From NCBI GenBank assembly GCA_904397185.1, contig CAJFOL010000111.1:1-35792 (forward strand): a DNA stretch of 35,792 nucleotides, given 5' to 3'. Shown here one piece after another: positions 17,626 through 33,075 of this stretch (position 1 is the stretch's first letter; the number at the start of each line of letters is the position of its first letter). The notes beneath the pieces were generated by a model. It made no database searches, was not told where the DNA came from, and was given only the letters and a program-made list of their open reading frames with translations. The position numbers were made by a program, and so were the translations under genes. The DNA is from an uncultured Clostridia bacterium (GTDB lineage Bacteria; Bacillota; Clostridia; Christensenellales; UBA1242).

Positions 17626-17638
17626 CCCTATTTTCCTC

Positions 17639-19357
17639 CTAATCTTTTGTCCGTAAGTACTTGTCCATCATACAGCCACCTCTTAGGTATTTGGCAGTTA
17701 CACACATTTTACAATGGACGCATTTACTCGGATCAATATAATATCTGTCTGCTGAAATGGAAATTGCCCCAGCTTTACAAAGAGATTCACATTTCAAACA
17801 TTTTCTACAAGCATTAAATTTTCTGACCTGGTATCCGACCATGTGCTGCAAGTTGTCATGATCTTTCACATTCATAGTTCTGACTTTTACAGCGAACTCA
17901 TATCCCCCCTGTTCAAATGGTTGAACTGACAAAATCGGAACATTTGTCCTATTATCTAATACCAACACTTCATGCAACAGCCTCTGTCCAAGTTCAGGAG
18001 CCACTCTTCCAAATGGTGTGAGCATATTCAAAAACTCATCATCCATCGGACGTACCAAACGATAGATTTTAGCATGATTCTCCGTAGTACAGTTAGTAAA
18101 ACGAATTTTTACATCTCCTGCTGCCGCAAGACCATTCCCTCCCTGTCTGGCTTTCCATGCACCAGAGTCCACATATTCCTCTGCATCCGGCTTGCCTATC
18201 TTCTTTGCAAACTCCACAAGAAATGACCTCCAGGTCTTGGACTGTTCTGGCATGTATATTCTCGATAAGAACTGCGCTCTCTGATTATTATTGGGACAGC
18301 ACCAGCAGCCTACTCTATCATATCCTAAACGATAAGCATTATTAAAATCAATCTTCTCAGCCAGAATATACAGCCAAATATCCATATCTTTCCAGAAAAA
18401 AATTGGAGAAGCAACAGTCTGTTGTTGGATCTTTACAGACTCTGCATCATCTTCTACTCTATTGTATTTACTCCTGCTTACGGACTCTGACTTTCTAATT
18501 CCATAGAAAGTCAAGATTCTTTGATTTCTGTACAGTGAATTAATAACTCTGGTAATAGGTCCTGTTTTAAACATTGAGCAGCACCATCTCATCATTCTAG
18601 CCGGCGGTCCTATATCCTCGCAGACCTCTTGAAAAATTTGTTCCCGATTCTCCGCTATCTTAAAGATTGCCTGTGGATGCTCCTTTCTATAGCGCTTCGC
18701 ATACTCGATCGTTAGCGGAAACTCCAACGTTGTATTTCCAAATATATGTACAAGAGATGGATCGCTTAAAGCCTTAATTGCCAAATCTGCAGTTACCGTT
18801 GAATCCTTTCCTCCCGAGAATGACAAAACTATATTCTCTTCTGGAAATTTTGCAGATGTTCTTTTAATAAAGGTATGTGATTCATCAATCAGATAGTCTA
18901 ACCTTGTCTTGTTTGCTTCAATGAAAGCCTCTATATATTGGTTAAAGCCGCCATAGGAATTGCCATTCTTATATCTATCCAGCTGATCAATATACTCATC
19001 AGCGTCAGCTTCCTTAAACAGTTTATTTGGCAAAGCAATTGACTTTCCATTCACATAATATCTGTTATTAGACGCCCAAACTGATTCATTTATCCACTGG
19101 TGTGGTTTCTTCTTCAGCAATATTTCAATCAGTAGTCTCTCTTCTGGAAAGACTGGTCTAATATCCGCTGCAAGATATTTTATTGGCTTACCACATCTTG
19201 GGCAGATTCCTTTGTCTGCTTGAATCACATCTTGCATAACTGGTACCTTACATTCCTCACACCAGTATACCTCAGTAGGATAATCTTCAACAGTTCCGCT
19301 ACCGCAGATGGGGCACTTTTCTTCATTTGTTTCTATATTACAGTTTTTACACCACAC
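17639..19357 (-). CDS. sspD: PAPS reductase/PP-loop ATP pyrophosphatase family protein (SspD/DndC-like) with N-terminal zinc ribbons and a C-terminal ferredoxin-type Cys clusters
   Basis: 572-aa ORF with a GTG start 8 nt after AAGGAG. The PP-loop is LSFSGGKDSTV. N-terminal zinc-ribbon Cys pairs are CKNC..CPICG and CEEC...CPRCG. C-terminal Cys clusters are CRKCLKCESLC and CVHCKMC. Confidence 0.8.
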   Translation of the reverse strand: MWCKNCNIETNEEKCPICGSGTVEDYPTEVYWCEECKVPVMQDVIQADKGICPRCGKPIKYLAADIRPVFPEERLLIEILLKKKPHQWINESVWASNNRYYVNGKSIALPNKLFKEADADEYIDQLDRYKNGNSYGGFNQYIEAFIEANKTRLDYLIDESHTFIKRTSAKFPEENIVLSFSGGKDSTVTADLAIKALSDPSLVHIFGNTTLEFPLTIEYAKRYRKEHPQAIFKIAENREQIFQEVCEDIGPPARMMRWCCSMFKTGPITRVINSLYRNQRILTFYGIRKSESVSRSKYNRVEDDAESVKIQQQTVASPIFFWKDMDIWLYILAEKIDFNNAYRLGYDRVGCWCCPNNNQRAQFLSRIYMPEQSKTWRSFLVEFAKKIGKPDAEEYVDSGAWKARQGGNGLAAAGDVKIRFTNCTTENHAKIYRLVRPMDDEFLNMLTPFGRVAPELGQRLLHEVLVLDNRTNVPILSVQPFEQGGYEFAVKVRTMNVKDHDNLQHMVGYQVRKFNACRKCLKCESLCKAGAISISADRYYIDPSKCVHCKMCVTAKYLRGGCMMDKYLRTKD

Positions 19358-19804: not shown

Positions 19805-19940
19805 TCCAAATCATCTGCTTCAACCGGGTCTTTACGTGAAACATCATTTCTCATATATTCTTTTAACTTCATTTATAAACTTACAGACAACTTCCATATA
19901 ATCCAAATCTGTAACCACAAATTCCTACCAAAGTACCGTA

Positions 19941-20024
19941 CCATTTTCGCAAAAATGACGATTTGGGACGCTCCCAGATAAAAAGTCAGAACCCGCAAAA
20001 GCCGTGTAAAATGCAGGTCTACGT
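19941..20024. repeat. copy A of a mosaic intergenic repeat (left arm plus central part)
   Basis: It aligns with 35673-35757 at roughly 80 percent identity by eye. The match includes ACCATTTTCGCAAAAA, TGACGATTT and AGAACCCGCAAAA. Confidence 0.8.
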
Positions 20025-20138: not shown

Positions 20139-20282
20139 TCAGAATTTTCCTAAACTTCCATATTCTTTAAGCCAACCTGCAGCAAAAAGATTAAAAACGA
20201 GATGACTGAAATCATGAAGTTCCGAATTTCTGTCATCATGACTATTCCAGGTATCATTTATATCAACAACAGAATCATTCAT
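20139..20282 (-). CDS. small ORF (47 aa, MNDSVVDINDTWNSHDDRNSELHDFSHLVFNLFAAGWLKEYGSLGKF) directly after the last operon gene
   Basis: The ATG at 20280-20282 lies 3 nt after the stop of the 20286 gene, and the ORF ends in TGA at 20139-20141. There is no convincing SD and it is below the track size cutoff. Confidence 0.2.
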   Translation of the reverse strand: MNDSVVDINDTWNSHDDRNSELHDFSHLVFNLFAAGWLKEYGSLGKF

Positions 20283-20285
20283 TTC

Positions 20286-21212
20286 TTAACTTATGCGCCA
20301 TACTTCCGCCAGCCTTCTCTCCATTTCTGCTAACTCTTCAAAACTTTCTTTTTCAATACCAAGTCCTTTTCGCAATCTTCCATATAATTTCCCCAGCAGA
20401 TCATTCTGTATAGTTACAATCCGTCTTATCTCTCCTGTCTGATTGCTGTAACGTCTCCTATTTTCTTCCAGCAAATCTGTTAAAAACAGCAGCAACAACT
20501 TCCTCTGCTTCAGATATTGAATATCGTACATGAGCGGGAGCCGCCATTTATATTCCTTATACTGCTCCAGATATTGGAAGCAGTTCTTTATTCCCCGGGA
20601 TCCCTCTCCGTCTTCTTCTGCCGTGCAGAGATTATCCGCCGCATATCGGAACGACTGTTCCAGAACTTCTTCCATTTTGTATTCCCTTTTTTTCTTTATC
20701 TGCCGAACTGTTATGCATCCGTTCGCCTCCGGCACAGAGTCAGCAGACAAATATGTGCGAAGCTCTTCATATGTAAGGCGATAATGATAGAACCCTTCTG
20801 AATCCGTACAGTATACCTCGGTATCTGAGCAATATTCCAGCGAGATGTAATGATCCATTCTTTTCAACAGAGTCGGCATAATTTGATAGCTGAGTTTCCC
20901 CATATCGATCGGCCCGACAACGACAGGAAAATTCTGACGGATCCTATACCTAATCTCCCATACAGCCTCTTCCGCAGTTTTTGTCTGGACTGTCTCTGGG
21001 GCATATCCCCACAAGCGAAGCCCGCGATCCATCCCCTGGTTCGGATCACAGTATGTTGTAAGCAACCTGTCGAAATGCTCGTTTTCAAAATGCCGGATTC
21101 CAAAAGGCGTTGATGTCGAAATCTCGAATATCTGCAAATCTATGGACGGATCCTGTATCGCATTCAGGCATGCATAACTCCCACAGCAGATCTCATTTCC
21201 GTAAAACCTCAA
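20286..21212 (-). CDS. BtrH_N-like papain-fold protein (putative carrier-protein-dependent acyl/aminoacyl transferase or peptidase)
   Basis: The track ORF is 317 aa from ATG 21239. A TTG at 21210-21212 has an AAAGGAGG SD 7 nt upstream and forms a TTGA overlap with the upstream stop. The N-terminal Cys motif is EICCGSYACLNAI, followed by PFGIRH. The protein is paralogous to the 26239-27072 product. Confidence 0.55.
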   Translation of the reverse strand: MRFYGNEICCGSYACLNAIQDPSIDLQIFEISTSTPFGIRHFENEHFDRLLTTYCDPNQGMDRGLRLWGYAPETVQTKTAEEAVWEIRYRIRQNFPVVVGPIDMGKLSYQIMPTLLKRMDHYISLEYCSDTEVYCTDSEGFYHYRLTYEELRTYLSADSVPEANGCITVRQIKKKREYKMEEVLEQSFRYAADNLCTAEEDGEGSRGIKNCFQYLEQYKEYKWRLPLMYDIQYLKQRKLLLLFLTDLLEENRRRYSNQTGEIRRIVTIQNDLLGKLYGRLRKGLGIEKESFEELAEMERRLAEVWRIS

Positions 21213-22645
21213 ATCAACGCCTCCTTTGCCAATACACATAATTTCTTTATATCTGTTTTGCCGTTCCTGTTTCTCGGAAACGGTGTATGAAGCAGAAAAA
21301 CTTCTGAATTCTGAAGATAAAATGGCATCTGGCGTACCGTCTCTTCCACTGCATGCCTGACAGAAGCGTCCTCTGCATAAACGAAGACCACGGCGTGCTC
21401 TCCAGTAACCGGATCCGGTAGCCCCGTCACCGCCACCTCCTTCACTCCGTTCACCTTTCGTATCATTTCCTCCATCCCAAAACCATTCACTCTATAACCG
21501 CGGATTTTGATAATGCCGTTTCTGCGTCCACAGAAGTAAAGGAATCCTTCGCTATCAATACGGAAAAGATCTCCAGTGTACACTCTCCTTCTCCCGGTCT
21601 CTCTGTCTGACTCAAAAACACCAGAATCCTCATCCCTGATTCCCCAATATCCCTCCATTACGTTAGGACCTTCAACTACCAGTTCTCCAATACCGGTATC
21701 TTTTTCTTTGTTGATAAGGCAGACCTTGACACCATCTAAAGGAAGCCCGCATGATCCTGCCAGCAGCTTGTCCGTTCTTTCTGCCGGCATCACTGCCACA
21801 CGCTTGCATTCTGTCAACCCATACATGGGTATAACAGATGTCCGGGGCATCGCTTCTGTCAGAGTCCGTATCAAAGGAAGGGGCAGTACTTCACCCGTAA
21901 AGGAAATATATCGCAGATAGAAATCATCTGCATGATTGAGAAAACCTGTTTTTACCAGAAGCGCCGCCACCGTAGGCAGCGTAGGGAACCCTGTTATTTT
22001 CCACTTTTTGAGTAAATAGGGAATACGCTGAAGCATTTCCCTTGAACTCAAATACAGCTGTGCTCCGCTCATAAATGCCAGAAACACTTGGTAAAGTCCA
22101 TAATCAAATGTTAACGGAAGACTGCACAATATCCTGTCTCCGGGGTTATTTCCAAGTCTTCTATTTATCACATCGCTGCAGAATAAGATTTGCTTCTGAC
22201 TGCCACAGACTCCTTTTGCCGTTCCCTCAGTTCCTGATGTATATATGATATACACCAGCGTGTCCTCCGGGTATTGCTTTCTGTCTTTTATACAAGCTTC
22301 TTCATCCCATACCTCTTCGGTCGTAGGATCCTCCTCACCGTCAAGAATAAGAGCAGGGGAACAGCTTTCTACAATTTCATCCCTTTCTTTCGTTCCCATG
22401 TGCCTGCTAACGGGGACAAACACCAAGCCTTCCGAAATACACGCAAGAAGAAGAACCACTGTTTCCAGCGGTTCACGATCTACTATAAGCACGCGGTCTC
22501 CTGCCTTAAGTCCTCTGCTCCGGAAGAATACGCTGTACGACCTGACTCTTGCATGAAGCTGTCTGAAAGTATATTCCCTGCTTTCATTTGAAATAATGAT
22601 ACGCGGATCCGACAAGTGTGATTCAATTAATTTCCAATACAGCAT
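21209..22645 (-). CDS. stand-alone NRPS-type adenylation (AMP-binding) enzyme
   Basis: Motifs are YIIYTSGTEGTAKGV, MYGLTEC, GELVVEGPNVMEGYW, YTGDLFRID, GRRNGIIKIRGYRV and NGKTDIKKL. The preferred start is ATG 22645, with a GGAGGG SD 5 nt upstream and a TAATG overlap with the NadE-like stop. The track start is an upstream GTG at 22705. Confidence 0.85.
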   Translation of the reverse strand: MLYWKLIESHLSDPRIIISNESREYTFRQLHARVRSYSVFFRSRGLKAGDRVLIVDREPLETVVLLLACISEGLVFVPVSRHMGTKERDEIVESCSPALILDGEEDPTTEEVWDEEACIKDRKQYPEDTLVYIIYTSGTEGTAKGVCGSQKQILFCSDVINRRLGNNPGDRILCSLPLTFDYGLYQVFLAFMSGAQLYLSSREMLQRIPYLLKKWKITGFPTLPTVAALLVKTGFLNHADDFYLRYISFTGEVLPLPLIRTLTEAMPRTSVIPMYGLTECKRVAVMPAERTDKLLAGSCGLPLDGVKVCLINKEKDTGIGELVVEGPNVMEGYWGIRDEDSGVFESDRETGRRRVYTGDLFRIDSEGFLYFCGRRNGIIKIRGYRVNGFGMEEMIRKVNGVKEVAVTGLPDPVTGEHAVVFVYAEDASVRHAVEETVRQMPFYLQNSEVFLLHTPFPRNRNGKTDIKKLCVLAKEALI

Positions 22646-23553
22646 TAAATCCCTCCGACAGCATGAACCGGCAACTCTGCCATAATCTCTCTGCTTTTCA
22701 GCCACTTTGCTTTCTCAACAATATGATACAGACCTAGTATGATTTCCTCTGAAACATCCGTTTTTTCCCGTATTTTTCCAATGGACTCTGCGGAAGAAAT
22801 TAGTTCAAGAATCCTGTCAATCTTTTTGTAATCCAGAGCACTCCTAATGTTCTCTGCTTTTGCGATCTCTTGTTCGGAAAACTCTCTTGGAATGATAATC
22901 GGTCCGTCATTCACGATCCAGTATGCAATATCTTCCAAATCCGTCTGCCCGGACCAAAAACCGGCGGACGGTTCCTGTTCAATGACTTCTTTTTCTGTTC
23001 CCAAAGCAACAGCCAACTCTTCTAGTTCTGATTTATAAAGATGGGCAATCGGTTTAAAATGTGCCAGGTTATCTCCAAAGGTAAGAAAAAATCCCAGCTC
23101 TTTTTCTGTCCTGTTCGTCGTTCCGGCTATCAAAAATCCCTTGTCCTGATAACATGAAATCACAGCGGACCTGACAGAACACTTCGCTTTTGCTGGATCC
23201 AGCATCATATCTGTATTAAATATCATCTTAGACTCAGCCTCTTCCAGCGCTCTCATAAGATCCTGGTTCATATTCTCCAAATGAATCTCCGCCATCGGTA
23301 TTCCCAGTTCGTCGCACAGATTTTTCGCATTTTTTAGGAACTTTGGTTCCATATCGCTCTGAATAACAATAAAAGCCTTTACCCTGTTTCTGCCAAGGCT
23401 CCGGCAGCAGAGACGAACCACAACATCTGAATCAAGCCCTCCCGAAACAGGTACGACAACCTTCTCCTGATCAAGGACAAAATTACATATGAAAGCCTGG
23501 ATTCTCTCAATTTCCCTATTTATATCATTTTCCAGCCAATTATTCATTTTCAT
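22645..23553 (-). CDS. NAD+ synthetase (NadE)-family PP-loop ATP pyrophosphatase/amidoligase-like enzyme
   Basis: 302-aa ORF. The PP-loop is VVPVSGGLDSDVV. NadE-like segments are GTTNRTEKELGFFLTFGDNLAHFKPIAHLYKSEL and EPSAGFWSGQTDLEDI. It overlaps the rSAM-like gene end by 14 nt. Confidence 0.75.
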   Translation of the reverse strand: MKMNNWLENDINREIERIQAFICNFVLDQEKVVVPVSGGLDSDVVVRLCCRSLGRNRVKAFIVIQSDMEPKFLKNAKNLCDELGIPMAEIHLENMNQDLMRALEEAESKMIFNTDMMLDPAKAKCSVRSAVISCYQDKGFLIAGTTNRTEKELGFFLTFGDNLAHFKPIAHLYKSELEELAVALGTEKEVIEQEPSAGFWSGQTDLEDIAYWIVNDGPIIIPREFSEQEIAKAENIRSALDYKKIDRILELISSAESIGKIREKTDVSEEIILGLYHIVEKAKWLKSREIMAELPVHAVGGI

Positions 23554-24697
23554 ATCTCCTCATAAATTCATCCTTCATTATACCGATTTCCTGTTCCAAT
23601 AACTGCAAGTCTATATTGTAAATCTTTGCCAGCTTCCGATATTCTTCCTCTGTCCTTTCTATGTCAACCCGTCCGTTTTCCCTCTCCATCCGTTTCTTCC
23701 ACTCCGCATGGCAGAGACACGGATACTTTCTTAGTTTCCTGATAATTTCCGGATTCTGAGTCTCCCGGTACTCATCCAGCTCTTTCAGCACTTCTCTTTC
23801 ACAGTTCAGACAGGTGCCCGGAGAACCGCAGATATATGATTTTTCTTCACCGAAATAATCCTTATACCAGGATATCTGTATCTTACTTAATTCTGTTTCT
23901 GAAAAATGTCCCAGCACTTCCGCCAGAGACCAAAACGACACACAGCTGTACATCCCATTTTCGGAAAGCACATTAAGTAGCGTGCCCTTTTTTATATGAT
24001 ACGGAAACAAAACAACACTGTCCGCCCCATCATTCAGTACATCCTTAATAGAGCGGACAGTATTACTAATCGCCGCTTTCTCGCTCATAAACGGATAACC
24101 CAGTCCGATATTGGCAGTCACATACATGCCGGCATGATGTATTTTCTCAACCGCATCCCGAAATATTCCATAAGTTGTATTCTTATTTATGCAGTGCTTA
24201 AGTATCCAGTTATCACTGCTCTCTACACCAATCTCAATATATTTATCAGCATCAGGAACCGCCTTCTTTACGAAATTGAGTCCTTCCGTTGATATCGTAT
24301 CTGCTCTTGATTCTATAATGAAACGTTTTGTCTTTATCCCTTTTAAAATCCCGCACAGATCCTCCCGCATGGATTTTGATACTTCTCTCTCGTCTAGCAT
24401 GCTTCCACTCGGCGTCAGCAGGAAATCTTCAAATTCCCATGGCAGACACTCCACGATTTTCTTTAACTCATTAAGAATCTTATCCCAGTGTACGGCTCCG
24501 CTTCCTTTTCCATAATTGCACATCACGCAGCCGCCCCGAGCGTCATGAATACAGCCTATAGTCAGGAACCACAAATCGCACAGCAGTCCCCCATTAGCTC
24601 TTTCAATTCTGTAATTTGTCCGCATCCTTTCTGGCATAACCGGCCGCTGTTTATATATCTCATATGTAATCTGCCTTAATACGTTATTAGTATTCAT
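23540..24697 (-). CDS. radical-SAM-like enzyme with non-canonical Cx7Cx2C cluster motif (TIGR01210/TIGR01212-like class)
   Basis: 385-aa ORF. The N-terminal motif is IGCIHDARGGCVMCNYG. A TIM-barrel-like middle follows (IEIGVESSD). C-terminal Cys groups are CGSPGTCLNC and CLCH. A GGGAG SD lies 8 nt upstream. Confidence 0.55.
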   Translation of the reverse strand: MNTNNVLRQITYEIYKQRPVMPERMRTNYRIERANGGLLCDLWFLTIGCIHDARGGCVMCNYGKGSGAVHWDKILNELKKIVECLPWEFEDFLLTPSGSMLDEREVSKSMREDLCGILKGIKTKRFIIESRADTISTEGLNFVKKAVPDADKYIEIGVESSDNWILKHCINKNTTYGIFRDAVEKIHHAGMYVTANIGLGYPFMSEKAAISNTVRSIKDVLNDGADSVVLFPYHIKKGTLLNVLSENGMYSCVSFWSLAEVLGHFSETELSKIQISWYKDYFGEEKSYICGSPGTCLNCEREVLKELDEYRETQNPEIIRKLRKYPCLCHAEWKKRMERENGRVDIERTEEEYRKLAKIYNIDLQLLEQEIGIMKDEFMRRYENE

Positions 24698-24700
24698 ATA

Positions 24701-24979
24701 TCACACTCCCATATGACTCTGAACAGAGTCTGTCAATGTCCGTGCGGACAGAAAAACCTGCTGGAGATCTTCCTCTACAGGATCAAACCTGATATGAAAC
24801 GCATCCTCTATATCGATCTGAAGCACAACAAGCATAACCGAATCAAATCCTAATTCATCCTGGATTTTAGTCTCAGCATTTATAGTTATACCCTTATTAT
24901 ATTCGGCAGAATTACGGAACATTTCAGTCACTATCCCTATGATCCTGTGCTCTGTCTCGTTTCTCCCAAGTCTATTCAT
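24701..24979 (-). CDS. acyl/peptidyl carrier protein
   Basis: The phosphopantetheine attachment motif is ELGFDSVMLV. The preferred start is ATG 24979, 7 nt after the decarboxylase stop, giving 92 aa. The track version starts at an upstream GTG (25060) that overlaps the decarboxylase gene. Confidence 0.75.
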   Translation of the reverse strand: MNRLGRNETEHRIIGIVTEMFRNSAEYNKGITINAETKIQDELGFDSVMLVVLQIDIEDAFHIRFDPVEEDLQQVFLSARTLTDSVQSHMGV

Positions 24980-24986
24980 TATCTGC

Positions 24987-26249
24987 TCACATCCTATCGT
25001 CAAGAAATCTATATGTTGATGAATGTCCCCGTACACATCGTATATCTTGTAAATGAACACTATCCATTTTATTATACACTAATACCGATGGCATTTCCAT
25101 AGTCAAAAACAAATTCGGAGCCTCTGTCGCGTTGTAGGCTCCCGCACCGTAAAAGATCAGCAGATCGCCTCTCTGCACACCTTCATCCACTACTACTCTA
25201 CATGCGAGCACATCCGCTTCACTGCATAGTGCGCCGCAAATCATGCAGTCTGCCGTTCTTCCCGAAGGCGCCCTACAGATATCTTTTATGTACGGCGTCC
25301 GTATACCCAGCATTCCTCCTGAATACTGGAGATGATTTGTCCCACCCAGACAAAACAGTATCTTCTTACCCTTCCGCTCTTTTATCTGAAAAACCTTCGT
25401 CACATAGATACCTGCCGAAGCCGCAACGCATCGCCCAGCTTCATAGATCACTTTAAATCTTTTGCGAAGTCCCTTTACAAACCATGCAGCTTCATCCACA
25501 GCAGCCACATATTCTTCTTTCTTTGCTCCCACAAAATACGGGAATCCGATCCCGCACCCAATCTGTATTTCAGATATACCAGATCCCGACAGTTCACACA
25601 GGACTTCCAGGGACTGCTGAAAATATTCCAGGTCCCTCTTCAGCTTACCTGCTTCGTTCCGCTGCGTCCCCGGATAATAGTGAAGCCCCACAATCCTGAC
25701 CGAACTGCTTTTATCACAAATATGAAAGCACTGCTCCGCTTCCTCCTGATCCATACCGAACCTGCCACCGTTGCCAAGCCGTAGGAGTAACTTCACAGAA
25801 TCCTCTCCCAATTTTCCAACACCGCGCAGTTCATCACATTGTTCTATGATCTGCCTCGCCTGTTCCGAAGAATCAACGCCGAATCTCCTCACCCCCATAT
25901 CAAAGGCGTCCCGGAGCATATCCTCTGTCCTAAGCACACCGTCCAGAACAATCCTGCTACCCGGTATTCCATACGCCCGGCACATCTGGAGTTCTCCGTC
26001 TGTACTCACCTCAATATAATCCGCCACCTCAGACGCTGCCGGTGCCAACCAAGGATTTGCTTTCATGGCGTATGCGATACTCACATCTCTACCGAGGCAT
26101 TCCCGAAGAAGAGCCAGATTACGTACAAACAAATTTTCATGGAAAATATAGAAGGGCACACCCCATTCTTGTTCCGTTTTTCTCATCCTGTCCGCGGCAT
26201 CTTTCCACTCTTTATCCATCGGATCCAAAAATGCATATTTATCTTCCAT
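24987..26249 (-). CDS. fold-type III PLP-dependent decarboxylase (Orn/DAP/Arg decarboxylase family; BtrK-like by context)
   Basis: 420-aa ORF. Motifs are AYAMKANPW (PLP lysine), HYYPGTQ, GCGIGFPY, EAGRCVAASAG and CGALCSEADVL. It overlaps the upstream gene by 11 nt. Confidence 0.85.
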   Translation of the reverse strand: MEDKYAFLDPMDKEWKDAADRMRKTEQEWGVPFYIFHENLFVRNLALLRECLGRDVSIAYAMKANPWLAPAASEVADYIEVSTDGELQMCRAYGIPGSRIVLDGVLRTEDMLRDAFDMGVRRFGVDSSEQARQIIEQCDELRGVGKLGEDSVKLLLRLGNGGRFGMDQEEAEQCFHICDKSSSVRIVGLHYYPGTQRNEAGKLKRDLEYFQQSLEVLCELSGSGISEIQIGCGIGFPYFVGAKKEEYVAAVDEAAWFVKGLRKRFKVIYEAGRCVAASAGIYVTKVFQIKERKGKKILFCLGGTNHLQYSGGMLGIRTPYIKDICRAPSGRTADCMICGALCSEADVLACRVVVDEGVQRGDLLIFYGAGAYNATEAPNLFLTMEMPSVLVYNKMDSVHLQDIRCVRGHSSTYRFLDDRM

Positions 26250-27072
26250 CGTTCTCCAGACTCCTCCATATACTGGTCAATATCCCAGGAAGCTCCACGA
26301 TGTCTCCCGATTCCGCCATGCGGAACATCCGTTGTTTCTTTTCGTCATACTTCGTCTTAATATCTTGACATCCACATTTCACAGCAAGTAAAAACACCTT
26401 ATCCAGCATCTGAATCATATTCAGGATTCCGTACCTGAGTGCAGTCCTTTCGCTCTGTGTGCCTGCATAACGCCTTACAGCCCCTGATATACTCTGCTCC
26501 TCAAGATCTCTTATTTTCTTATGATACTCGATACCCTCTTTTAATATCATTTCACAGGAAGGTTCCCGAGATAAACGGTTTCTATGCCTGTTCTCTTCCC
26601 GCAGATATATAATACAGCAGCCCGGCTGACAATCATTCAAAGACAGCAGATTTTCCTGTGTCATCCATAGCCCCGGAAATCCCCATGGATCAAATACCTG
26701 ATATTCCTTTTCCCGTCTCTGTATAAACAAATACCTTCCTCCGCCTATGTAATAACGGTCGCTTACCGACGGCGCTGCGATCCCGTTTTTCACCGGACCA
26801 AAGACAAAAGCTTCCGGTAGTTCCATCATCCGGGATACCTTACACAGACGAACGGCAGAAAATGAAATCCCTACCGCATCGCCAAGCTTCCTGACCGCAC
26901 TTTCCGTATCGATCAAAGGCCGGAACCACTTCTCCTCCCTGCCGTCCGCACAGAACCCGAACGCCCGCAGACTGACGCAGTCCGGACTGCTTATCTTTGG
27001 CAGTCTTTCGTATTCCATCAACTGATCCAAAGCCGGACAAAATGTATCTATCGTCTTTCCGATGTAAAACAA
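26239..27072 (-). CDS. BtrH_N-like paralog (second copy; start uncertain)
   Basis: 277-aa ORF from TTG 27072. It aligns with the 20286 product: VFGPVK/VVGPID, YQVFDPWGF/VYCTDSEGF and MTQENL/LTYEEL. The N-terminal Cys (DTFCPALDQL) is present only if the TTG start is used. Confidence 0.5.
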   Translation of the reverse strand: MFYIGKTIDTFCPALDQLMEYERLPKISSPDCVSLRAFGFCADGREEKWFRPLIDTESAVRKLGDAVGISFSAVRLCKVSRMMELPEAFVFGPVKNGIAAPSVSDRYYIGGGRYLFIQRREKEYQVFDPWGFPGLWMTQENLLSLNDCQPGCCIIYLREENRHRNRLSREPSCEMILKEGIEYHKKIRDLEEQSISGAVRRYAGTQSERTALRYGILNMIQMLDKVFLLAVKCGCQDIKTKYDEKKQRMFRMAESGDIVELPGILTSIWRSLENDGR

Positions 27073-27090
27073 TTCTCTATCTCTCTTTCT

Positions 27091-29634
27091 TTATAATTTC
27101 CCTGTATCTGGTTCATCCGTTCTCCTGACTTCAATTTTATTCTTGATCAGAATTCTATCAAAAAATTTATCCGTGCCCTCGAAAACAGGATTGATAAATT
27201 TAGCTCCTTTAAACGAATCCACATTCAAATTCTTACTGTCTTTGAATATCACTCCGATAAAGCACGTATTATTAAAGTTCGTTTCTGTAAAGTCGCAGCC
27301 GTCAAACTCGGCACCGGACACTGTGCCGTCTGCGAAACTGGCAAAAGCAAAATTACATTTGCGAAATACAGAATAATTAAAACTGGACTGCCCGAGAAAC
27401 GCATTTTTAAATATACAGTCCTCAAAAGTCGAGTAAGATGACAGCATCCCGCTCGCTATGCAGTTTATAAAGGAAACTTTACTGAAAATTGCTCTTGTCA
27501 ATTCGGCTTCTTTCAGTATAACATCCTGAAATGAACTTTCATTCACTCGAGCCATTGTCAGATCAATCCGGCTGCAATCGCTACGCTCAAAGGAGCAAAG
27601 ACTGAATTTTGCCACAGATGCATGAAGCTTATTCATATCCGAATCCTCAAAATTAACCAGACAGCATCTGCTTTTATAGAATATTGCATCTGACAAGACT
27701 GTGCTTCGGAAATCTGACGCACCGATTCTTCCCTGGCGCAGATTTGCCTGTTCCATAATACATCCATGCATGTCACAGGCATATATTTTACTTGAATCCA
27801 TCTGTGTTTTTACAAACACACTCTGTTCCATGCATGTTCTGTAAAATACAATGTCCGTCAGCTCTGCGTCTGTAAAATCGCACTGATTCATCTTAAAAAC
27901 TGCCTCTTCCGCTATTATCCCCCATGTCTTTTTCATCATACGGCTATTATCCCTGTAAAGACAGTTCCGCTCTTTCAGCATATCCGCCTTTTCCCCTTTC
28001 GCTTCTGTCCAGATCAGGCGAAGCGCCTCAAAGCTATCCTTTTCAGGGAAAAGGTCCAGTCTGATCCGCTCCAAAACAGATGATACAAACCCGCATTCTT
28101 TCATATCTCTGTCTTCACCTTGTTTCAGAGTGATCTCTATATCTATAAGCCGTGAAGAAGAAAATTGATTCTTCCCAAGCTCCCCTTTTTCCAAATTGAC
28201 ATTCGCCAGGACAACGCCCTCAAACTGTGCCCGTTTAAGGTCACAATTTCTCAGCTCTGCGCCTGTAAAGTCAACATTTTCAAATGCTGCGTTCTGAAAA
28301 AAGCAGTCCTCGAAAAATGTATTCGCAAACGAGCAATCCTCACTGCTGGTATAATAAAACTCACAGTTCTTGAAGGAAGCCATACCAAAATTGCAGTCTT
28401 TTATACGGTTTCTTACAAAAAGACTGGAATCAAATAATGAAGTTCGAAAAGACGAAGACTCAAAACGGATACCGTAAAAATCAATAAAACTGAATTTTCC
28501 CGACGGGAAAAAGACCTCTAGCTTTGGAAGCATACAAAAAACATAAAGAGAAAGCTGCATCAAGAAAAACAAAAAAAGTGTTCCAATTTCATTTTCTTTA
28601 AGAGGCTCTCTTTCTTTTCTTGGATCCGTCTCTATCTGTACCTGGAGCAGATTCCGTATTTCCGACAAAAGATAATACGCATCACAAAATCCTCCCCCGT
28701 CTATTTTGATCGCCTGCTTTATTCCTAAAACATTCTCATATGGATAATTCTTGCCCCAAGCATGGGCTTTAGCATCATTTTGTTCTACATCAGTATCTCC
28801 ATATACACTTTCTCCATGTTCTACCGCAAATCTTACTCTTTCCGCCATTGATTGCCTGTGCAAAAATCCCTCGCCGTTTTCTGCAAGACAAAACAATATC
28901 TTTTCCCATTCTGAGAATCTGTTAATAAATTTCTTTTTATTGATTCTGTTTACTTTTGTCTCATCCTCGATTTGGAGCCATGCCTCCAGACTTTCAGCCC
29001 CGTTTGTTATTCGATCAATCAATTCATCAAAAGTTTCATTATCAGATCTATCCCAAAGCATACGCTCTCGCTTCTGCTTTAATGTATCAAGCAATTTTCT
29101 CGCTTCTGCGCTCTGTAATTTGAAAAGTTTATCCGCCGTCTTATGAAGCCCTCTGTCTATATCAATACATTTATTCAAAAACCAGGCGGACCCGATCAGG
29201 CATACTCCATATAACACAATAAGAATGATACGTACTTCATCTCTTGAGCGAATATGTCTAAAATAGAACATGCTGTAAAGGCAGATTACAATTCCCATCA
29301 GAGCAAGAGAAGTAAGCATATAGATCCAAAGACTTCTCATTGTTTTATCCCGGTATTCGCGGATCACCACACTGTAATATGTCTTTTCGTCAGACGTTCT
29401 GTCCAGAGCTTCTTTCAAAAACACATATGATGTGATCAGACTTCCCAGCATTGTTGCTATCAATGTAATAAGCATCGGCCACAATGTGCTTCTTTGATCA
29501 TCATAGACTTTGTTTATCTCATCGAACTTTTCTTCACTGATCAGAAAAATCACTGCTACCGCCACTGCAAATATAATAACAATAGAAACCGTAACCTTTA
29601 ATTTGCTACGCTTTTTATCCGTATGCCTACTCAT
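27091..29634 (-). CDS. membrane-anchored pentapeptide-repeat protein (N-terminal 4-5 TM helices, helical linker domain, two pentapeptide-repeat blocks)
   Basis: The track ORF is 854 aa from GTG 29655. The ATG at 29632-29634 (MSRHTDKK) has an AAGAGGA SD 5 nt upstream. Hydrophobic segments include VTVSIVIIFAVAVAVIFLI, LWPMLITLIATMLGSLITSYVF, LWIYMLTSLALMGIVICLY and ILIVLYGVCLIGSAWFL. Pentapeptide-like runs include CNFGMASFKNCEFYYTSSEDCSFANTFFEDCFFQNAAFENVDFTGAELRNCDL and CDFTDAELTDIVFYRT...ANLRQGRIGASDFRSTVLSDAIF. Confidence 0.8.
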   Translation of the reverse strand: MSRHTDKKRSKLKVTVSIVIIFAVAVAVIFLISEEKFDEINKVYDDQRSTLWPMLITLIATMLGSLITSYVFLKEALDRTSDEKTYYSVVIREYRDKTMRSLWIYMLTSLALMGIVICLYSMFYFRHIRSRDEVRIILIVLYGVCLIGSAWFLNKCIDIDRGLHKTADKLFKLQSAEARKLLDTLKQKRERMLWDRSDNETFDELIDRITNGAESLEAWLQIEDETKVNRINKKKFINRFSEWEKILFCLAENGEGFLHRQSMAERVRFAVEHGESVYGDTDVEQNDAKAHAWGKNYPYENVLGIKQAIKIDGGGFCDAYYLLSEIRNLLQVQIETDPRKEREPLKENEIGTLFLFFLMQLSLYVFCMLPKLEVFFPSGKFSFIDFYGIRFESSSFRTSLFDSSLFVRNRIKDCNFGMASFKNCEFYYTSSEDCSFANTFFEDCFFQNAAFENVDFTGAELRNCDLKRAQFEGVVLANVNLEKGELGKNQFSSSRLIDIEITLKQGEDRDMKECGFVSSVLERIRLDLFPEKDSFEALRLIWTEAKGEKADMLKERNCLYRDNSRMMKKTWGIIAEEAVFKMNQCDFTDAELTDIVFYRTCMEQSVFVKTQMDSSKIYACDMHGCIMEQANLRQGRIGASDFRSTVLSDAIFYKSRCCLVNFEDSDMNKLHASVAKFSLCSFERSDCSRIDLTMARVNESSFQDVILKEAELTRAIFSKVSFINCIASGMLSSYSTFEDCIFKNAFLGQSSFNYSVFRKCNFAFASFADGTVSGAEFDGCDFTETNFNNTCFIGVIFKDSKNLNVDSFKGAKFINPVFEGTDKFFDRILIKNKIEVRRTDEPDTGKL

Positions 29635-29669
29635 CTCAATCCTCTTTCCCATCACACTTTATCTCTGGT

Positions 29670-30071
29670 TTACTGATGTCTGAAACAACTCATCCTTGCC
29701 TTGATAACATATATACGCATCTTATCTTTGTCTTCACGCTTCTCTATTTCTCCCACAGTTTGTTCACAAAATGAAAAAATTTCTGTTTCTTTCTCATATT
29801 CCACATATTCCTTTTGCTTTCTCATGTGAAAAATATACAGAAAAACAGCCGTCCCTGCAATCCCAAGCATGACCAGAGCAAGCAAAATAAACAAACACAC
29901 CTGCAAAAGGGATACATTCCTGAAAAATAATATAACTATTAAACCTATAATCACCAACATACCAGCTATGGCGCTTATAGCCGCTATTACTAATGCCCCA
30001 ATAGCCGCTCTTTCGCACCACTTGTAGTAATCTTTTATCGCATCTGTTTTATTTGTGTTTTCCTGCTCCAT
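29670..30071 (-). CDS. small integral membrane protein (2 predicted TM helices)
   Basis: 133-aa ORF. Hydrophobic stretches are AAIGALVIAAISAIAGMLVIIGLIVILFF and LLQVCLFILLALVMLGIAGTAVFLYIF. An AGAGGGAG SD is present. The gene lies 14 nt upstream of the pentapeptide-repeat gene. Confidence 0.7.
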   Translation of the reverse strand: MEQENTNKTDAIKDYYKWCERAAIGALVIAAISAIAGMLVIIGLIVILFFRNVSLLQVCLFILLALVMLGIAGTAVFLYIFHMRKQKEYVEYEKETEIFSFCEQTVGEIEKREDKDKMRIYVIKARMSCFRHQ

Positions 30072-30448: not shown

Positions 30449-30510
30449 ACTACACCATTTTCTTTCAAAATGACGATTTTTAACGCCACAGAACAAAACG
30501 ATCCCAAACG
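30449..30510. repeat. copy B of the mosaic intergenic repeat (left arm joined directly to right arm)
   Basis: 30449-30481 matches 35668-35700, and 30482-30510 matches 35764-35792. The 63-nt centre of copy C is absent. Confidence 0.8.
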
Positions 30511-30673
30511 AGCCAAGAGGTGAATGCTAATTTTAAAGATTATCATTAAGCTACGAGCCATGCAGGGAAAAAACATTTTTGATCTTTACAACGACAATCG
30601 CGACAAAACAACCTTCACAAGATGTACGGTAGAAAAAATTTGTTCGCATATCATATTCTACCTATTAACCATA

Positions 30674-32026
30674 TTAAATCCCAAGATCATCAATAGTAAT
30701 TTCACTCAATTCTCGGTCAGAAATTCCTGCAAGTAATGCCAATCTATTTGCCTGATTGGATAGCGCTGACTCAAACAAATTTCTCATATCTCGTCCATTG
30801 GCAAAGTTCTCTGGTCTATAATTACACAGTTGCTCCAGATAATTTCGTAAATGCTTTTCAGTGTCTGTCGCCAATACCATATCATTGGATTTACAAAATA
30901 CTTCAAATATTTCAAAAAGTTCATCTTTCGAATAATCTTCAAAAAAAATACTCTTATTAAATCTTGACTTTAGTCCTGGATTAGATTCTAAAAAATCTTC
31001 CATTGGGCCGGGATAACCAGCAACAATCACAACAAAATTCTCACGATTATCTTCCATCGCCTTGAGAATCGTATCAATAGCCTCTTGACCAAAATCGCCT
31101 CCGCCTTTTGCCAATGTATACGCTTCATCAATAAACAAAATTCCACCCATAGCTTCATTGATTTTTTCTTTCGTTTTCAATGCGGTCTGCCCCACATATC
31201 CAGCAACTAAGCCCGCCCGGTCAACTTCCACCAATTGCCCCTTTTCCAGAACACCTAACTGCTTATATATCTTTGAGATCAGACGTGCCACAGTTGTTTT
31301 TCCGGTTCCAGGATTACCCAAAAAAACTAAATGCCTTGATACATTCGGCACTTTATGCCCTCTATTTTTGCGAATCTTATTGATTTTTAGCAGATTAATG
31401 AGACTGTTGACCTCTTGCTTTACTCTGGCAAGCCCAATTAAGCTATTAAGTTTGTCCAAAAGCTCTTCAATCGTTTCTTCTGGCTCGTTTAACTCTTCCA
31501 ACTTATTATCCTTATCGCACCGCTCTTTAAGCCGCTTATCCTCAGCTTGCACAGTACTTTCTTCCATGACGCTAGTATCGTTTTCTAAAATACTTTCAGA
31601 ATATTCCTTCATCGTCTTCAACTGTTCTGTAAATCTTTTGGAGTCGATATCTTTCTTGTCATATCGACTTAATGTATAAAATCTTCCTATTTCAACAGCA
31701 CAAGCCAAATACAAAGACGATAATCTCACACCTTTCCCATTCGTCAGCTTCTGATCAAGATTACACAGGATTTCAAATGCTTCCGGTATTGCTCCCACTT
31801 CAGAAGTCGGCTCTATAAAACGCAAAGCCGGGGCTATATATGTCTCCTTGAAAAGCGCAATTCTGTCTTCGGTCCCTGCTATCGAAATGTATTTGATAAA
31901 ATTCAGGATCTCACGGACAGTCATCCCTTCTATATCCCGTTTTTCTCCAATAGCCAAAAGTATGGGCTGTACTGATCTGCAGGCCGACAGGAGATTATCT
32001 AAAGCATTTTTTACATCTACGACCAT
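30674..32026 (-). CDS. AAA+ ATPase of the SpoVK/CbbX/EccA type with an uncharacterised ~190-aa N-terminal domain
   Basis: 450-aa ORF. Motifs are Walker A FLGNPGTGKTTVARLI, Walker B GGILFIDEAY, VIVAGYP and a sensor region LKSRF. An AGGAGGAGG SD is present. The ORF starts 14 nt after the upstream gene. Confidence 0.85.
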   Translation of the reverse strand: MVVDVKNALDNLLSACRSVQPILLAIGEKRDIEGMTVREILNFIKYISIAGTEDRIALFKETYIAPALRFIEPTSEVGAIPEAFEILCNLDQKLTNGKGVRLSSLYLACAVEIGRFYTLSRYDKKDIDSKRFTEQLKTMKEYSESILENDTSVMEESTVQAEDKRLKERCDKDNKLEELNEPEETIEELLDKLNSLIGLARVKQEVNSLINLLKINKIRKNRGHKVPNVSRHLVFLGNPGTGKTTVARLISKIYKQLGVLEKGQLVEVDRAGLVAGYVGQTALKTKEKINEAMGGILFIDEAYTLAKGGGDFGQEAIDTILKAMEDNRENFVVIVAGYPGPMEDFLESNPGLKSRFNKSIFFEDYSKDELFEIFEVFCKSNDMVLATDTEKHLRNYLEQLCNYRPENFANGRDMRNLFESALSNQANRLALLAGISDRELSEITIDDLGI

Positions 32027-32040
32027 AACCTCCTCCTATC

Positions 32041-33075
32041 TTACATCATTGCCACTTGTTTCATTGCCACATCAAATACTTCTCTATATTCTGAAGTGTC
32101 ATATTCTGCAAACGCTTCTTTCAAAGCAGACTCTATACTTTCTTTAACCTCACGAAAGCTTGTCTCCCGAATGTCGTTCAATATCGTTGCGTCTCCAATT
32201 GCAACAATCAATTTCTGATTATCTTCTACTTCCTGACGCAACCCACTAACCTGATCAAGCAATTCAGTATAATAAATATCAACACCTGTTGTTGTAAGTC
32301 TAGTTTCAAACATTCCATGATCCTGCAGCTTTTCAATAAACCATTGCGACAGCAACGTAGAATATACTGTCATCCATTTGTTGTGGGAGGAATGCCATAC
32401 ATTCTGATCTCCAACCACTTCATGGTGATTGAAATAATATTGCTCATCAAAATAACACAACGACACCGTCAACATTGCAAGCAGAGAAAAAATAGAAACA
32501 ATAATGGTATCCCCATCTGTTGCAATATCTTTTTGAAACACATTAATGAGCATTTCCAGTACATTATATTCTGCATCAACCAACTTTCTCATCTTTTCTT
32601 CAGAATAAGGCTGCTGGATTTTTCTTGCATCAAGCATATCTGTATGTTCTGACAGAACCTTTTTAAACTCATATTCCGTTTGTATGTCCGTACCTTGCTT
32701 TATCAAATGTTGAAGCTGAATAAATTGCTGGTTAATCTCTGCGCTCATTTTGTCCAGTTTTTCATATATAATTGCAAAACCGGCACAGGTTCCACAAAGG
32801 TTTAATCCGTTCAGAACAATACTCAGATTCTGCATTCTTGCAACCTGCTGAATTATATTTAGGTTCTTATTTTCAAAAAGATTATTTATACCCAACGCCT
32901 GCAAAGCTTTATCTGCTACTTCCTTCGCCTCATTCTGCGGTAATTCATTTAAAGCAACCTTCTGAAAGTTTTGGATTCTTTTATTTTTTCCTCTCATAAC
33001 AATTTCAAGGACTTTTTTATCATTCAAAAAAGGGGTTAATTGTTCCAACGCATCTACGATCAATGTATCACTCAT
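32041..33075 (-). CDS. hypothetical protein with two hydrophobic segments (unknown function)
   Basis: 344-aa ORF with an AAGGAG SD 9 nt upstream. It has an ATGAGTGA overlap with the upstream gene. Hydrophobic segments are LSIVLNGLNLCGTCAGFAIIY and TIIVSIFSLLAMLTVSLCYF. Confidence 0.65.
   Translation of the reverse strand: MSDTLIVDALEQLTPFLNDKKVLEIVMRGKNKRIQNFQKVALNELPQNEAKEVADKALQALGINNLFENKNLNIIQQVARMQNLSIVLNGLNLCGTCAGFAIIYEKLDKMSAEINQQFIQLQHLIKQGTDIQTEYEFKKVLSEHTDMLDARKIQQPYSEEKMRKLVDAEYNVLEMLINVFQKDIATDGDTIIVSIFSLLAMLTVSLCYFDEQYYFNHHEVVGDQNVWHSSHNKWMTVYSTLLSQWFIEKLQDHGMFETRLTTTGVDIYYTELLDQVSGLRQEVEDNQKLIVAIGDATILNDIRETSFREVKESIESALKEAFAEYDTSEYREVFDVAMKQVAMM

Follow-up and report, generated by a model that had tools for sequence, protein, structure and literature searches.

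What might a compact set of carrier-protein-dependent biosynthetic genes be doing between modules of antiviral defence genes? This question is raised by an operon of nine genes (g1 to g9) on the minus strand of a 35,792-nucleotide stretch of DNA from an uncultured Clostridia bacterium (NCBI GenBank assembly GCA_904397185.1, contig CAJFOL010000111.1, positions 1 to 35,792), the whole of which is called the window here. The operon spans positions 20286 to 30071. The answer that we favour, with moderate confidence in the scheme as a whole, is an orphan thiotemplated cluster which works independently of nonribosomal peptide synthetases (NRPS) and makes a small molecule. Its core belongs to a family of biosynthetic clusters that is widespread and not specific to defence islands.

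The nine open reading frames (ORFs) are co-directional and tightly packed. A TAATG at 22645 contains both the stop codon of g7 and the start codon of g8, and a TTGA at 21209-21212 joins the stop of g8 to the TTG start of g9, the same TTG at which the homologues start. The genes g3 and g4 overlap by 11 nt (26239-26249) and g6 and g7 by 14 nt (23540-23553), and the remaining intergenic gaps measure between 3 and 35 nt. The G+C content amounts to 0.42-0.48 in the operon and to 0.33-0.41 in the flanks. All ORFs and all junctions on which an earlier inspection of the sequence (the original prediction) had based a nine-gene, co-directional unit were verified. A tenth gene, for which that prediction had left room, was not substantiated: the 47-amino-acid (aa) ORF behind g9 (20139-20282, minus strand) was seen only on near-identical contigs, is missing 3' of g9 in relatives of 75-90 % identity and is probably no member of the unit. 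Since the ORF is absent from these relatives, it was also rejected as the precursor of a peptide made on ribosomes and modified after translation (RiPP). Searches of the encoded proteins with profile hidden Markov models (Pfam, NCBIfam) confirmed the domains proposed for g2 and g4 to g8 and found, as had been stated, no condensation domain, polyketide synthase (PKS) or glycosyltransferase in the operon. Scans of the window with Rfam models and for tRNAs yielded no RNA genes.

The strongest argument for a functional unit comes from its conservation. Relatives were collected by scanning one genome per species with a profile of g6, followed by tblastn with all nine proteins. A core composed of g3, the decarboxylase g4, the carrier protein g5, the radical S-adenosylmethionine (radical SAM) enzyme g6, the NadE-like protein g7, the adenylation enzyme g8 and g9 is colinear in more than 30 independent loci at protein identities between 25 and 90 %. 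These loci are spread over at least six phyla, from Lachnospiraceae to Nocardia, Azospirillum, Chthoniobacter and Bacteroidota. Such a recurrence of gene order is far beyond chance, and the neighbourhood comparison proposed with the original prediction therefore found the set to be conserved as a unit. At close range, an identical g6 protein occurs with unchanged neighbours on more than 20 gut metagenome contigs, and the closest named genomes are metagenome-assembled Mediterraneibacter genomes from chicken gut.

Two architectures can be distinguished among the loci. Type A, found in the window, in Lachnospiraceae and in one member of the Oscillospiraceae, consists of a transmembrane (TM) pentapeptide-repeat protein, g3, decarboxylase, carrier protein, radical SAM enzyme, NadE-like protein, adenylation enzyme and g9. 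Type B occurs in Anaerocolumna, Vallitalea, Dorea and other Lachnospiraceae as well as in Marichromatium, Methylococcaceae, Azospirillum, Chthoniobacter, Nocardia, Bacteroides and Melioribacter. Here the order of the core is unchanged; an extra gene of about 290 codons is placed between the radical SAM and the NadE-like gene, a KASIII-like gene follows g9, and one or two more RaSEA-like radical SAM paralogues are present, often together with a methyltransferase, a PALP enzyme, an ATP-grasp enzyme and an MFS transporter. The type B relatives look like ordinary secondary-metabolite clusters. The catalytic motifs of the carrier protein, the decarboxylase and the PP-loop enzyme are kept across both architectures. 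An origin of the operon from phages was rejected, as tblastn of g6 against 50,697 phage records gave no match and the single match in IMG/VR is a chromosomal region of Chthoniobacter; plasmids contain only distant radical SAM matches to g6 (<27 %). In four loci of one type A lineage (L053-L055 and L022, approximately 14480-19320) the operon is followed by an agr-like set, which consists of a response regulator of the LytTR type, a histidine kinase, AgrB and an AgrD-like ORF of 50 aa. What precedes the operon varies from contig to contig in these loci, which suggests that the operon and this regulator move together.

The chemistry of the first step can be read from g8 (21209-22645), a stand-alone adenylation enzyme (Pfam AMP-binding, E 4e-61). 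By sequence search its best single-domain match in the PDB is VinN with 177 bits, and over the region of the specificity pocket VinN reaches 78 bits versus 45 bits for the next enzyme. VinN accepts 3-methylaspartate or aspartate as a beta-amino acid, with D230 holding the amino group, F231 and S299 forming a bulky wall and K330/R331, on a beta13-beta14 loop shortened by one residue, binding the alpha-carboxylate (PMC11253843). In the alignment to 3WV4/3WVN, g8 carries D, Y, T, K and R where VinN has D230, F231, S299, K330 and R331, and the loop is gap-free. All features of a VinN-type pocket were thus found in g8: D230, a bulky residue at 231, Ser or Thr at 299, K330/R331 and the beta13-beta14 loop shorter by one residue. 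The motifs FDYG and TECKR, in which these residues lie, are invariant over 35 loci of both architectures with the sole exception of L039, where H replaces G. As every substrate-binding residue of VinN is kept, g8 probably attaches aspartate, or a 3-substituted aspartate, to g5 via the side-chain carboxylate. The prediction of substrate specificity that had been proposed as a check was carried out by this alignment and gives an Asp-type substrate. The earlier statement that an NRPS-type adenylation domain takes the place of an ATP-grasp ligase holds insofar as an adenylation enzyme is present and an ATP-grasp domain is not; the enzyme is now specified as a VinN-like, beta-amino-acid type. g8 also resembles DltA (142 bits, NCBIfam).

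The presumed acceptor of the activated unit, g5 (24701-24979), is a stand-alone carrier protein of 92 aa with a score of 22.2 bits for PF00550 (cut-off 20.8). Its phosphopantetheine-attachment motif (L/F)DS was found in 30 of 32 loci, the remaining two being one ES and one truncated row of the alignment. The next gene upstream, g4 (24987-26249), encodes a fold-type III pyridoxal 5'-phosphate (PLP) decarboxylase of the diaminopimelate (DAP)-decarboxylase, BtrK and CtaF type. It matches Orn_Arg_deC_N and Orn_DAP_Arg_deC in Pfam and, in the PDB, DAP decarboxylases and BtrK (76 bits); the motif with the PLP-binding lysine (KAN) is conserved in 31 loci, as are E-GR and C..D. By analogy, g4 would probably decarboxylate the tethered aspartyl unit to a beta-alanyl-type thioester. 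The best NCBIfam models of g8 and g4 are the exosortase-A-associated ligase/decarboxylase pair TIGR03098/TIGR03099, both below the cut-off (251 vs 592 and 159 vs 478, respectively).

How the acyl unit would leave the carrier is indicated by g9 (20286-21212). No model of Pfam, NCBIfam or PADLOC matched either g9 or g3. However, an alignment-based AF2 model of g9 (pLDDT 92.7) gave with Foldseek AziU3/U2, CtaG and CcbD as its only significant matches in the PDB, with E-values from 4e-6 to 7e-4, a probability of 1.00 and TM-scores of 0.5-0.6. The residues C10, H121 and D137 are invariant among 33 homologues and parallel the triad C11, H128 and D144 of CtaG, for which the variants C11A, H128A and D144N are deposited in the PDB; the homologue in L008 has a weak match to BtrH_N (PF14399). 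CtaG, CcbD, AziU3/U2, BtrH and AsbE belong to a recently defined class of papain-like, carrier-protein-dependent ligases (PMC12865890). On the basis of the modelled fold and the conserved triad, g9 is assigned with confidence to this CtaG/BtrH/CcbD-type class of Cys-His-Asp thiotemplated transacylases, in agreement with the BtrH-like protein that had been proposed at this position. Its donor is suggested by the genomic linkage to the carrier protein g5 in more than 30 loci.

A second, equally BtrH-like paralogue had been proposed for g3 (26239-27072, 277 aa, no assigned family), and of this proposal a weak likeness of the fold is what stands. BLASTP finds no similarity between g3 and g9, and hhalign of the two families yields an E-value of 0.0046 at a probability of 7.6 % with weakly aligned central strands. 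The AF2 model of g3 (pLDDT 66) matches CcbD best (E 0.055), followed by Josephin and papain-like folds. In Nocardia, a g3-type query cross-matches the g9 region. The position of the nucleophilic cysteine is mostly occupied by E or A in 29 homologues, and that of the histidine varies between R, N, Q, G and P. Because neither residue is conserved in the family, g3 is not a second transacylase and is at best a catalytically dead relative of the BtrH/papain-like enzymes. A recent duplication that gave rise to g3 and g9 was rejected on account of the missing BLASTP similarity and the weak profile and fold evidence. The gene is always located directly upstream of the decarboxylase gene, and the AziU2/U3 heterocomplex offers an analogy for a possible joint action of g3 and g9.

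Between the carrier protein and the adenylation enzyme the operon encodes two further enzymes, which are proposed to act in tailoring. The protein g6 (23540-24697) is a RaSEA-like radical SAM enzyme of the ELP3 clade. It matches the RaSEA model TIGR01210 with E 7.5e-44 and 150.2 bits, below the equivalog cut-off of 212.15, and the Pfam Radical_SAM model weakly. Its motif is C-x7-C-x2-C, and four more cysteines are conserved in the C-terminal part, which possibly hold an auxiliary cluster; C49, C57, C60, C296, C299, C327 and C329 are invariant. Matches by sequence in the PDB are confined to ELP3 and queuine lyase, in a copy of the database that contains no RaSEA structure. The family is small; 1.84 billion clusters contain 138 representatives at E<=1e-30, some of which are tandem double radical SAM proteins. 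Neither ArcS, a tRNA-guanine transglycosylase (TGT) nor a PUA protein was found in the window or in the related loci, and the neighbours of g6 are biosynthetic. Judged by its score below the equivalog cut-off and by the lack of an ArcS or tRNA-modification context, g6 is not RaSEA.

The partner protein g7 (22645-23553) is a NadE-like PP-loop ATP pyrophosphatase of the amidoligase type (PF02540 NAD_synthase, E 1.3e-37; 89 bits to NH3-dependent NadE in the PDB) with an SGGxDS PP-loop motif that is invariant in 34 loci. It lies above the domain cut-off of TIGR00552 (116.9 bits vs 63.65) and below the full-length equivalogs PRK13980 (139 vs 255) and PRK00876 (117 vs 313). Furthermore, its gene is always embedded in the cluster and sometimes fused to the radical SAM gene. 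By these scores g7 is of the NadE type and not the housekeeping equivalog. Natural fusions within bona fide clusters join the carrier protein to the radical SAM enzyme (P0099) and the radical SAM enzyme to the NadE-like protein (P0041), and thereby link all three functionally. RaSEA breaks a C-N bond and leaves an amidine; in NadE and in PP-loop enzymes of the QueC type, the oxygen of a carboxyl or carbonyl group is adenylated ahead of attack by nitrogen; and the PP-loop enzyme CtaC thioamidates beta-alanine chains bound to a peptidyl carrier protein (PCP). By comparison with these reactions, g6 and g7 might activate a carbonyl group of the tethered intermediate and then form an amide, amidine or thioamide. 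In the literature no RaSEA-like radical SAM/NadE-like pair was found in a biosynthetic cluster, nor was the gene set described under RaSEA/TIGR01210 in clusters, BtrH with radical SAM, or thiotemplated assembly with pentapeptide repeats. The earlier statement that no described system has this gene set therefore stands, as neither a pathway nor a defence system matched.

Two observations on relatives of this pair are added here. On the phage- or mobile-genetic-element (MGE)-like gut metagenome contigs L050-L052 (61-114 kb) a trio of carrier protein, RaSEA-like radical SAM and NadE-like protein, 59 % identical to g6 and g7, occurs alone (approximately 9709-12039), without adenylation enzyme, decarboxylase, transacylase and pentapeptide protein. 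It sits between a DUF5906 primase gene, which it follows directly, and SSB, and is surrounded by many small ORFs, HNH and a sigma-like gene. In the 69 %-identical relative L009 (14450-17810) a LarB-type AIRC gene begins 15 nt after the operon and LarC (Ni_insertion) lies 2 kb further on; g7 matches LarE weakly. A link to the nickel-pincer cofactor was rejected as a probable coincidence, since LarB/LarC adjoin the operon in this single locus.

Taken together, the homologies allow the following scheme. In the first step g8 would adenylate the side-chain carboxylate of aspartate or a 3-substituted aspartate and load it onto the phosphopantetheine arm of g5, as deduced from homology at the level of single residues. 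The free alpha-carboxylate would then be stripped off on the carrier by g4, for which CtaF, BtrK and VinO serve as analogues and the conserved residues as further indication. The tethered intermediate may subsequently be tailored by g6 and g7, in accordance with the fusions to the carrier protein in other genomes; the chemistry at this point is speculative and might comprise ATP-dependent activation of a carbonyl or carboxyl group and then amide, amidine or thioamide formation with radical chemistry. Cys10 of g9 would take over the acyl group and pass it to an amine acceptor under formation of an amide, with the dead relative g3 as a possible partner or scaffold. Finally, g2, possibly together with g1, would protect the producer or export the product. 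In the window this operon has been captured as a cassette of a defence-gene array. The logic of loading, decarboxylation while tethered and transfer, which the original prediction had ascribed to a carrier-protein-dependent unit, is supported by these findings. The contexts in the relatives are typical of secondary metabolism as well, with agr-type quorum sensing beside the operon and KASIII, methyltransferase, further radical SAM proteins and MFS in type B.

A clue to the target of such a product is provided by the head of the operon. The first gene, g1 (29670-30071), encodes a small membrane protein of 133 aa with hydrophobic segments and no family above the cut-off; homologues of about 59 % identity were found in L013 and L014 only, and small ORFs are similarly placed in L054, L055, L057 and L058. 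The second protein, g2 (27091-29634), is an 847-aa membrane protein composed of four N-terminal TM helices, a helical linker of about 200 aa and a stretch of pentapeptide repeats that takes up about 450 aa (Pfam Pentapeptide_4, Pentapeptide and Pentapeptide_3, E 1e-28 to 1e-16). A fifth hydrophobic segment is not conserved in the homologues, so the repeat domain is probably cytoplasmic. The scores are below the NCBIfam cut-offs for Qnr (42 vs 240 bits), MfpA (38 vs 360) and HalA (NF051894, 55 vs 250), and by this measure g2 is not a member of the Qnr family.

The gene g2 is present in every type A locus in which the upstream flank is covered and is missing from type B throughout. In twelve loci of the latter type (L026, L028-L031, L033, L036, L039, L042, L043, L048 and L068) a UvrA-like ATPase of about 745 aa is encoded instead, inside the operon and at a distance of 17-60 nt from the adjoining genes, and it never occurs together with g2; in Anaerocolumna, an MFS transporter is present in the distant cluster. 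This class-II-like UvrA paralogue (747 aa) does not reach the length of canonical UvrA; it matches UvrA and, with 588 bits, the echinomycin resistance protein Ecm16 (PDB 7SH1). Pentapeptide-repeat proteins (McbG, AlbG, CysO, Qnr) and UvrA-like proteins (DrrC, Ecm16) are classical self-resistance factors against gyrase- or DNA-targeting products. Because g2 is replaced by the UvrA-like ATPase, both being of self-resistance types, and because closthioamide inhibits gyrase, DNA or a type II topoisomerase is, by analogy, the probable target of the product. No better clue to the target is at hand, but it is a weak one. The idea that g2 serves self-protection receives indirect support from the same mutually exclusive replacement.

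The location of the operon in the window remains to be considered. One flank holds SspA/B/C/D and PbeA/PbeC along with a GmrSD protein and a restriction helicase of type IV, and the other an AAA+ ATPase and an Mrr nuclease together with two unknown genes, as expected from the claim of a cassette between defence modules. Within the former flank a sigma-70 family gene with regions 1.1, 2 and 4 (5459-6625) lies between the GmrSD and PbeC-like genes. The latter module (30674-35638) comprises five genes, namely an ORF of 251 aa, a nuclease gene with Mrr_cat and DUF8426, two genes for unknown proteins of 216 and 344 aa, and that of the AAA+ ATPase; it corresponds to no named defence system, the AAA+ protein has weak IetA-like matches in PADLOC, and in this lineage the module is always beside the operon.

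The repeats noticed beyond both ends of the operon are real, with none expected by chance, and belong to an element of about 167 nt which is represented three times on the minus strand of the window. A near-full copy cut by the end of the window (35652-35792; 96.5 % over consensus positions 27-167) is located upstream of the 251-aa/Mrr/216/344/AAA+ module. An internally deleted copy (30455-30534; consensus 3-51 by blastn, plus the core) lies about 385 nt upstream of g1 and contains the core motif TCGTCATTTT-N-AAAATGG at 30455-30476. The 3' half of the element (19940-20012; consensus 73-146, 90.5 % by blastn), with its core motif at 19941-19961, is found downstream of the operon and upstream of HTH_26 and the Ssp module. 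Each copy is thus upstream of one module, namely Mrr/AAA+, the operon and HTH plus Ssp, and a full copy of 162 nt exists in the same contig (L062, 4214-4375). A scan of metagenomes with the core motif yielded at least 96 stretches (L070-L165), all from gut metagenomes. Over 80 distinct sites the element has sharp boundaries and column identities of 80-99 %, and it holds a terminator-like hairpin of 17 bp, the palindrome CATTTT-N-AAAATG and GGTGTAGTAAA repeats in tandem. Rfam gave no match, and alifold no consensus structure except for support of the central hairpin.

The first gene 3' of the element differs at almost every site (57 families among 81) and overwhelmingly belongs to defence genes such as Dsr2/SIR2, QatA, AbiLi, AriA, ThsB, HEPN/Toprim, KAP, SLFN, GmrSD, ApeA and DUF4238; in eight loci two co-oriented copies bracket a cassette. 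In Lachnospiraceae the element resembles a junction between the cassettes of a defence array, or a terminator-promoter that these have in common. As the flanking repeats belong to an element that precedes many defence genes, the view of the operon as one cassette of such an array is supported here, and the repeats are not private ends of this particular cassette.

Does this position mean that the operon itself is a defence system? The same chemistry could yield a DNA- or gyrase-targeting molecule, intracellular or locally released, that blocks phage replication while g2 shields the host. The operon is one of three modules in the window that are each preceded by the element, which almost always precedes defence genes, and recurrence beside defence genes was partly borne out by two other type A lineages and one further locus: in L057/L058 the operon lies among TIR, RT, HD-CE, DUF4062 and DUF2971, in L060/L061 among AAA_15/21 and DCD-Nuc_deoxyrib_tr, and L009 has an integrase and an SLFN/AbiEi gene at a distance of 3.5-6 kb. 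However, the neighbours of the operon in nine more loci of type A are mainly genes for housekeeping, sugars, chemotaxis and quorum sensing, with sporulation genes also seen, and the element is missing beside these nine operons. PADLOC-DB 2.0 finds no defence-system model in the nine proteins (marginal matches to PycTM, E 0.0034, and QueC, E 0.0012), and a search for empty sites revealed no polymorphism, the flanking AAA+ protein adjoining the operon in every case. Moreover, defence islands collect cargo without defensive function too, and the type B relatives resemble secondary-metabolite clusters of the usual kind. On this balance a chemical anti-phage cassette is unlikely, though worth keeping in view, and the same doubtful standing applies to its extension, a compact thiotemplated anti-phage pathway that would move from one defence island to another as a cassette with the element of about 167 nt at its borders, an element that in gut Lachnospiraceae accompanies dozens of other defence systems as well. 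As a separate observation, in the 89 %-identical Mediterraneibacter loci L057/L058 (approximately 12120-14033) the operon is followed by a RiPP-like trio of a PqqD-like gene, a small ORF and a radical SAM gene, and then by genes for a TIR protein of the CAP12/PCTIR kind, an HD-CE protein and a reverse transcriptase.

Two other functions would place the effect of the operon at the membrane or on a macromolecule. If g9 moved an aminoacyl or beta-alanyl unit to an envelope polymer, a lipid or a nucleic acid, with g1 and g2 at the membrane, the resemblance of g8 to DltA, the exosortase-A-associated pair TIGR03098/TIGR03099 as the best models of g8 and g4, the tRNA-directed relatives of g6 (RaSEA, ELP3 and MnmL) and the presence of membrane proteins without an exporter would find an explanation. 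Such a decoration is nevertheless quite improbable: the scores for the exosortase-associated pair are far below the cut-offs, the search with profile models detected no glycosyltransferase, polymer-export, MBOAT/DltB-like, TGT/DpdA-like or DNA-binding enzyme in the unit, and the UvrA-like ATPase, KASIII, methyltransferases and MFS of type B indicate a diffusible natural product. An abortive infection of the Hailong type, in which a small ligand made by the enzymes gates g2 and a perturbation of this ligand by infection lets g2 depolarise the membrane, has its precedent in HalA, a TM channel gated by the product of its partner enzyme (PMC13434031). g2 likewise joins TM helices to a large, probably cytoplasmic repeat domain, has a sub-threshold match to HalA and is encoded among defence genes. 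The match of 55 bits, however, reflects generic pentapeptide repeats, a HalB-type nucleotidyltransferase is missing from the operon, no sensor component is evident, and a pathway of seven biosynthetic genes would be implausibly long for the making of a signal. Distant clusters fill the slot of g2 with the UvrA-like ATPase or MFS, which fits resistance or export and not an effector, and this function is considered very improbable.

Several points weigh against the production of a small molecule that is held back from its own producer by g2. The operon contains no phosphopantetheinyl transferase, exporter or regulator, and each enzymatic step rests on inference. With its 847 aa and four TM helices, g2 is unlike the soluble gyrase protectors of about 200 aa; its repeat domain is mildly acidic (60 K+R vs 71 D+E), and the models of Qnr, MfpA and HalA are far below their cut-offs. 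The exchange of the pentapeptide-repeat protein for the UvrA-like ATPase follows the phylogeny and goes back to a single event in evolution or to a few, instead of to many that occurred independently. As g7 exceeds the cut-off of TIGR00552, its sequence is compatible with a plain NAD-related role. In addition, the lone trio of carrier protein, radical SAM and NadE-like protein on phage- or MGE-like contigs is not explained by the model.

If the biosynthetic interpretation is correct, the operon represents an uncharacterised, phylogenetically broad family of NRPS-independent thiotemplated pathways that genome mining anchored on ATP-grasp enzymes would have missed. A RaSEA-like radical SAM enzyme together with a NadE-like PP-loop enzyme acting on a carrier-bound substrate would be a combination without described chemistry. 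The mutually exclusive pentapeptide-repeat and UvrA-like genes make a testable prediction, DNA or a type II topoisomerase, for the target of a product of common gut Lachnospiraceae. Furthermore, the placement of the cassette behind a defence-linked element makes the question of small-molecule defences in defence islands accessible with a single construct of nine genes.

Compared with known systems, the operon represents a known kind of thiotemplated pathway, following the logic of closthioamide, butirosin and vicenistatin, plus two unexplained tailoring enzymes. For one of these, g6, the archaeosine enzymes ArcS-RaSEA (TIGR01210; PMC11298593) are the closest comparison, as they have in common the RaSEA/ELP3-clade core, the non-canonical spacing of cysteines and a tightly coupled partner. 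Unlike RaSEA, g6 is bacterial, scores below the cut-off and has no ArcS, TGT or tRNA gene nearby; its partner is a PP-loop enzyme, and its substrate is presumably tethered to a protein. As for self-resistance, the pentapeptide-repeat protein at the head of the operon recalls McbG, AlbG, CysO and Qnr, and the UvrA paralogue within distant versions of the operon recalls DrrC and Ecm16. In contrast to Qnr, MfpA, McbG and AlbG, g2 with its four TM helices and 847 aa is not a soluble dimer of about 200 aa, and the models remain below the cut-off.

The original prediction had referred the chemistry to the logic of butirosin. The shared part consists of carrier loading, tethered decarboxylation (BtrK and g4, 76 bits) and transfer to an amine by the BtrH family, as in BtrI/BtrJ/BtrK/BtrH. 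However, an adenylation enzyme replaces the ATP-grasp enzyme BtrJ, and the pocket is predicted to be of the Asp type, not for Glu. The operon lacks aminoglycoside genes, the hydroxylase BtrO/BtrV and BtrG, and adds the radical SAM and NadE-like enzymes. Vicenistatin biosynthesis with VinN/VinP/VinO (3WV4, 3WV5, 3WVN; PMC11253843) shows the same trio of stand-alone adenylation enzyme, acyl carrier protein (ACP) and PLP decarboxylase. VinN is the closest relative of g8 in the PDB, and the pocket residues and the short beta13-beta14 loop are kept. In contrast, the operon has no VinM (the adenylation enzyme for the protecting group), VinK (acyltransferase), VinJ (peptidase) or PKS, transfers by a BtrH/CtaG-like enzyme, and resides in a gut Firmicute and not in an actinomycete.

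Closthioamide is assembled by the NRPS-independent thiotemplated cta pathway of Ruminiclostridium cellulolyticum (PMC7183216, PMC12865890, PMC6772006). Experiments have shown that CtaD couples aspartate to the carrier through the side-chain carboxylate, that CtaF accepts nothing but the tethered form for decarboxylation to beta-alanyl-S-PCP, and that CtaG follows as transacylase; a PP-loop enzyme tailors the PCP-bound chain, and the product targets gyrase (PMC7183216). A route of this kind has likewise been demonstrated for vicenistatin. Like this pathway, the operon unites in one locus a stand-alone PCP, a PLP decarboxylase of the Orn/DAP/Arg family, a papain-like Cys-His-Asp ligase and a PP-loop enzyme. 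In addition, CtaG is among the top structural matches of g9, the producer is an anaerobic member of the Clostridia, and a gyrase-targeting product fits the pentapeptide-repeat resistance-type gene found here. The differences are a VinN-type adenylation enzyme for loading versus the ATP-grasp enzyme CtaD, and a NadE-type g7 versus the Fe-S, TtuA-like CtaC, the latter two being set apart by description. The branch for p-hydroxybenzoic acid (PHBA; CtaA, CtaH, CtaI), the second PCP, CtaJ, CtaK and CtaB are absent, and the RaSEA-like radical SAM enzyme, the dead g9 relative g3 and the membrane pentapeptide-repeat protein are additional. With its VinN-like loader, CtaG-like ligase, PP-loop enzyme and the conversion of aspartate to beta-alanine as the underlying logic, the operon thus has its nearest precedent in closthioamide plus vicenistatin rather than in butirosin alone.

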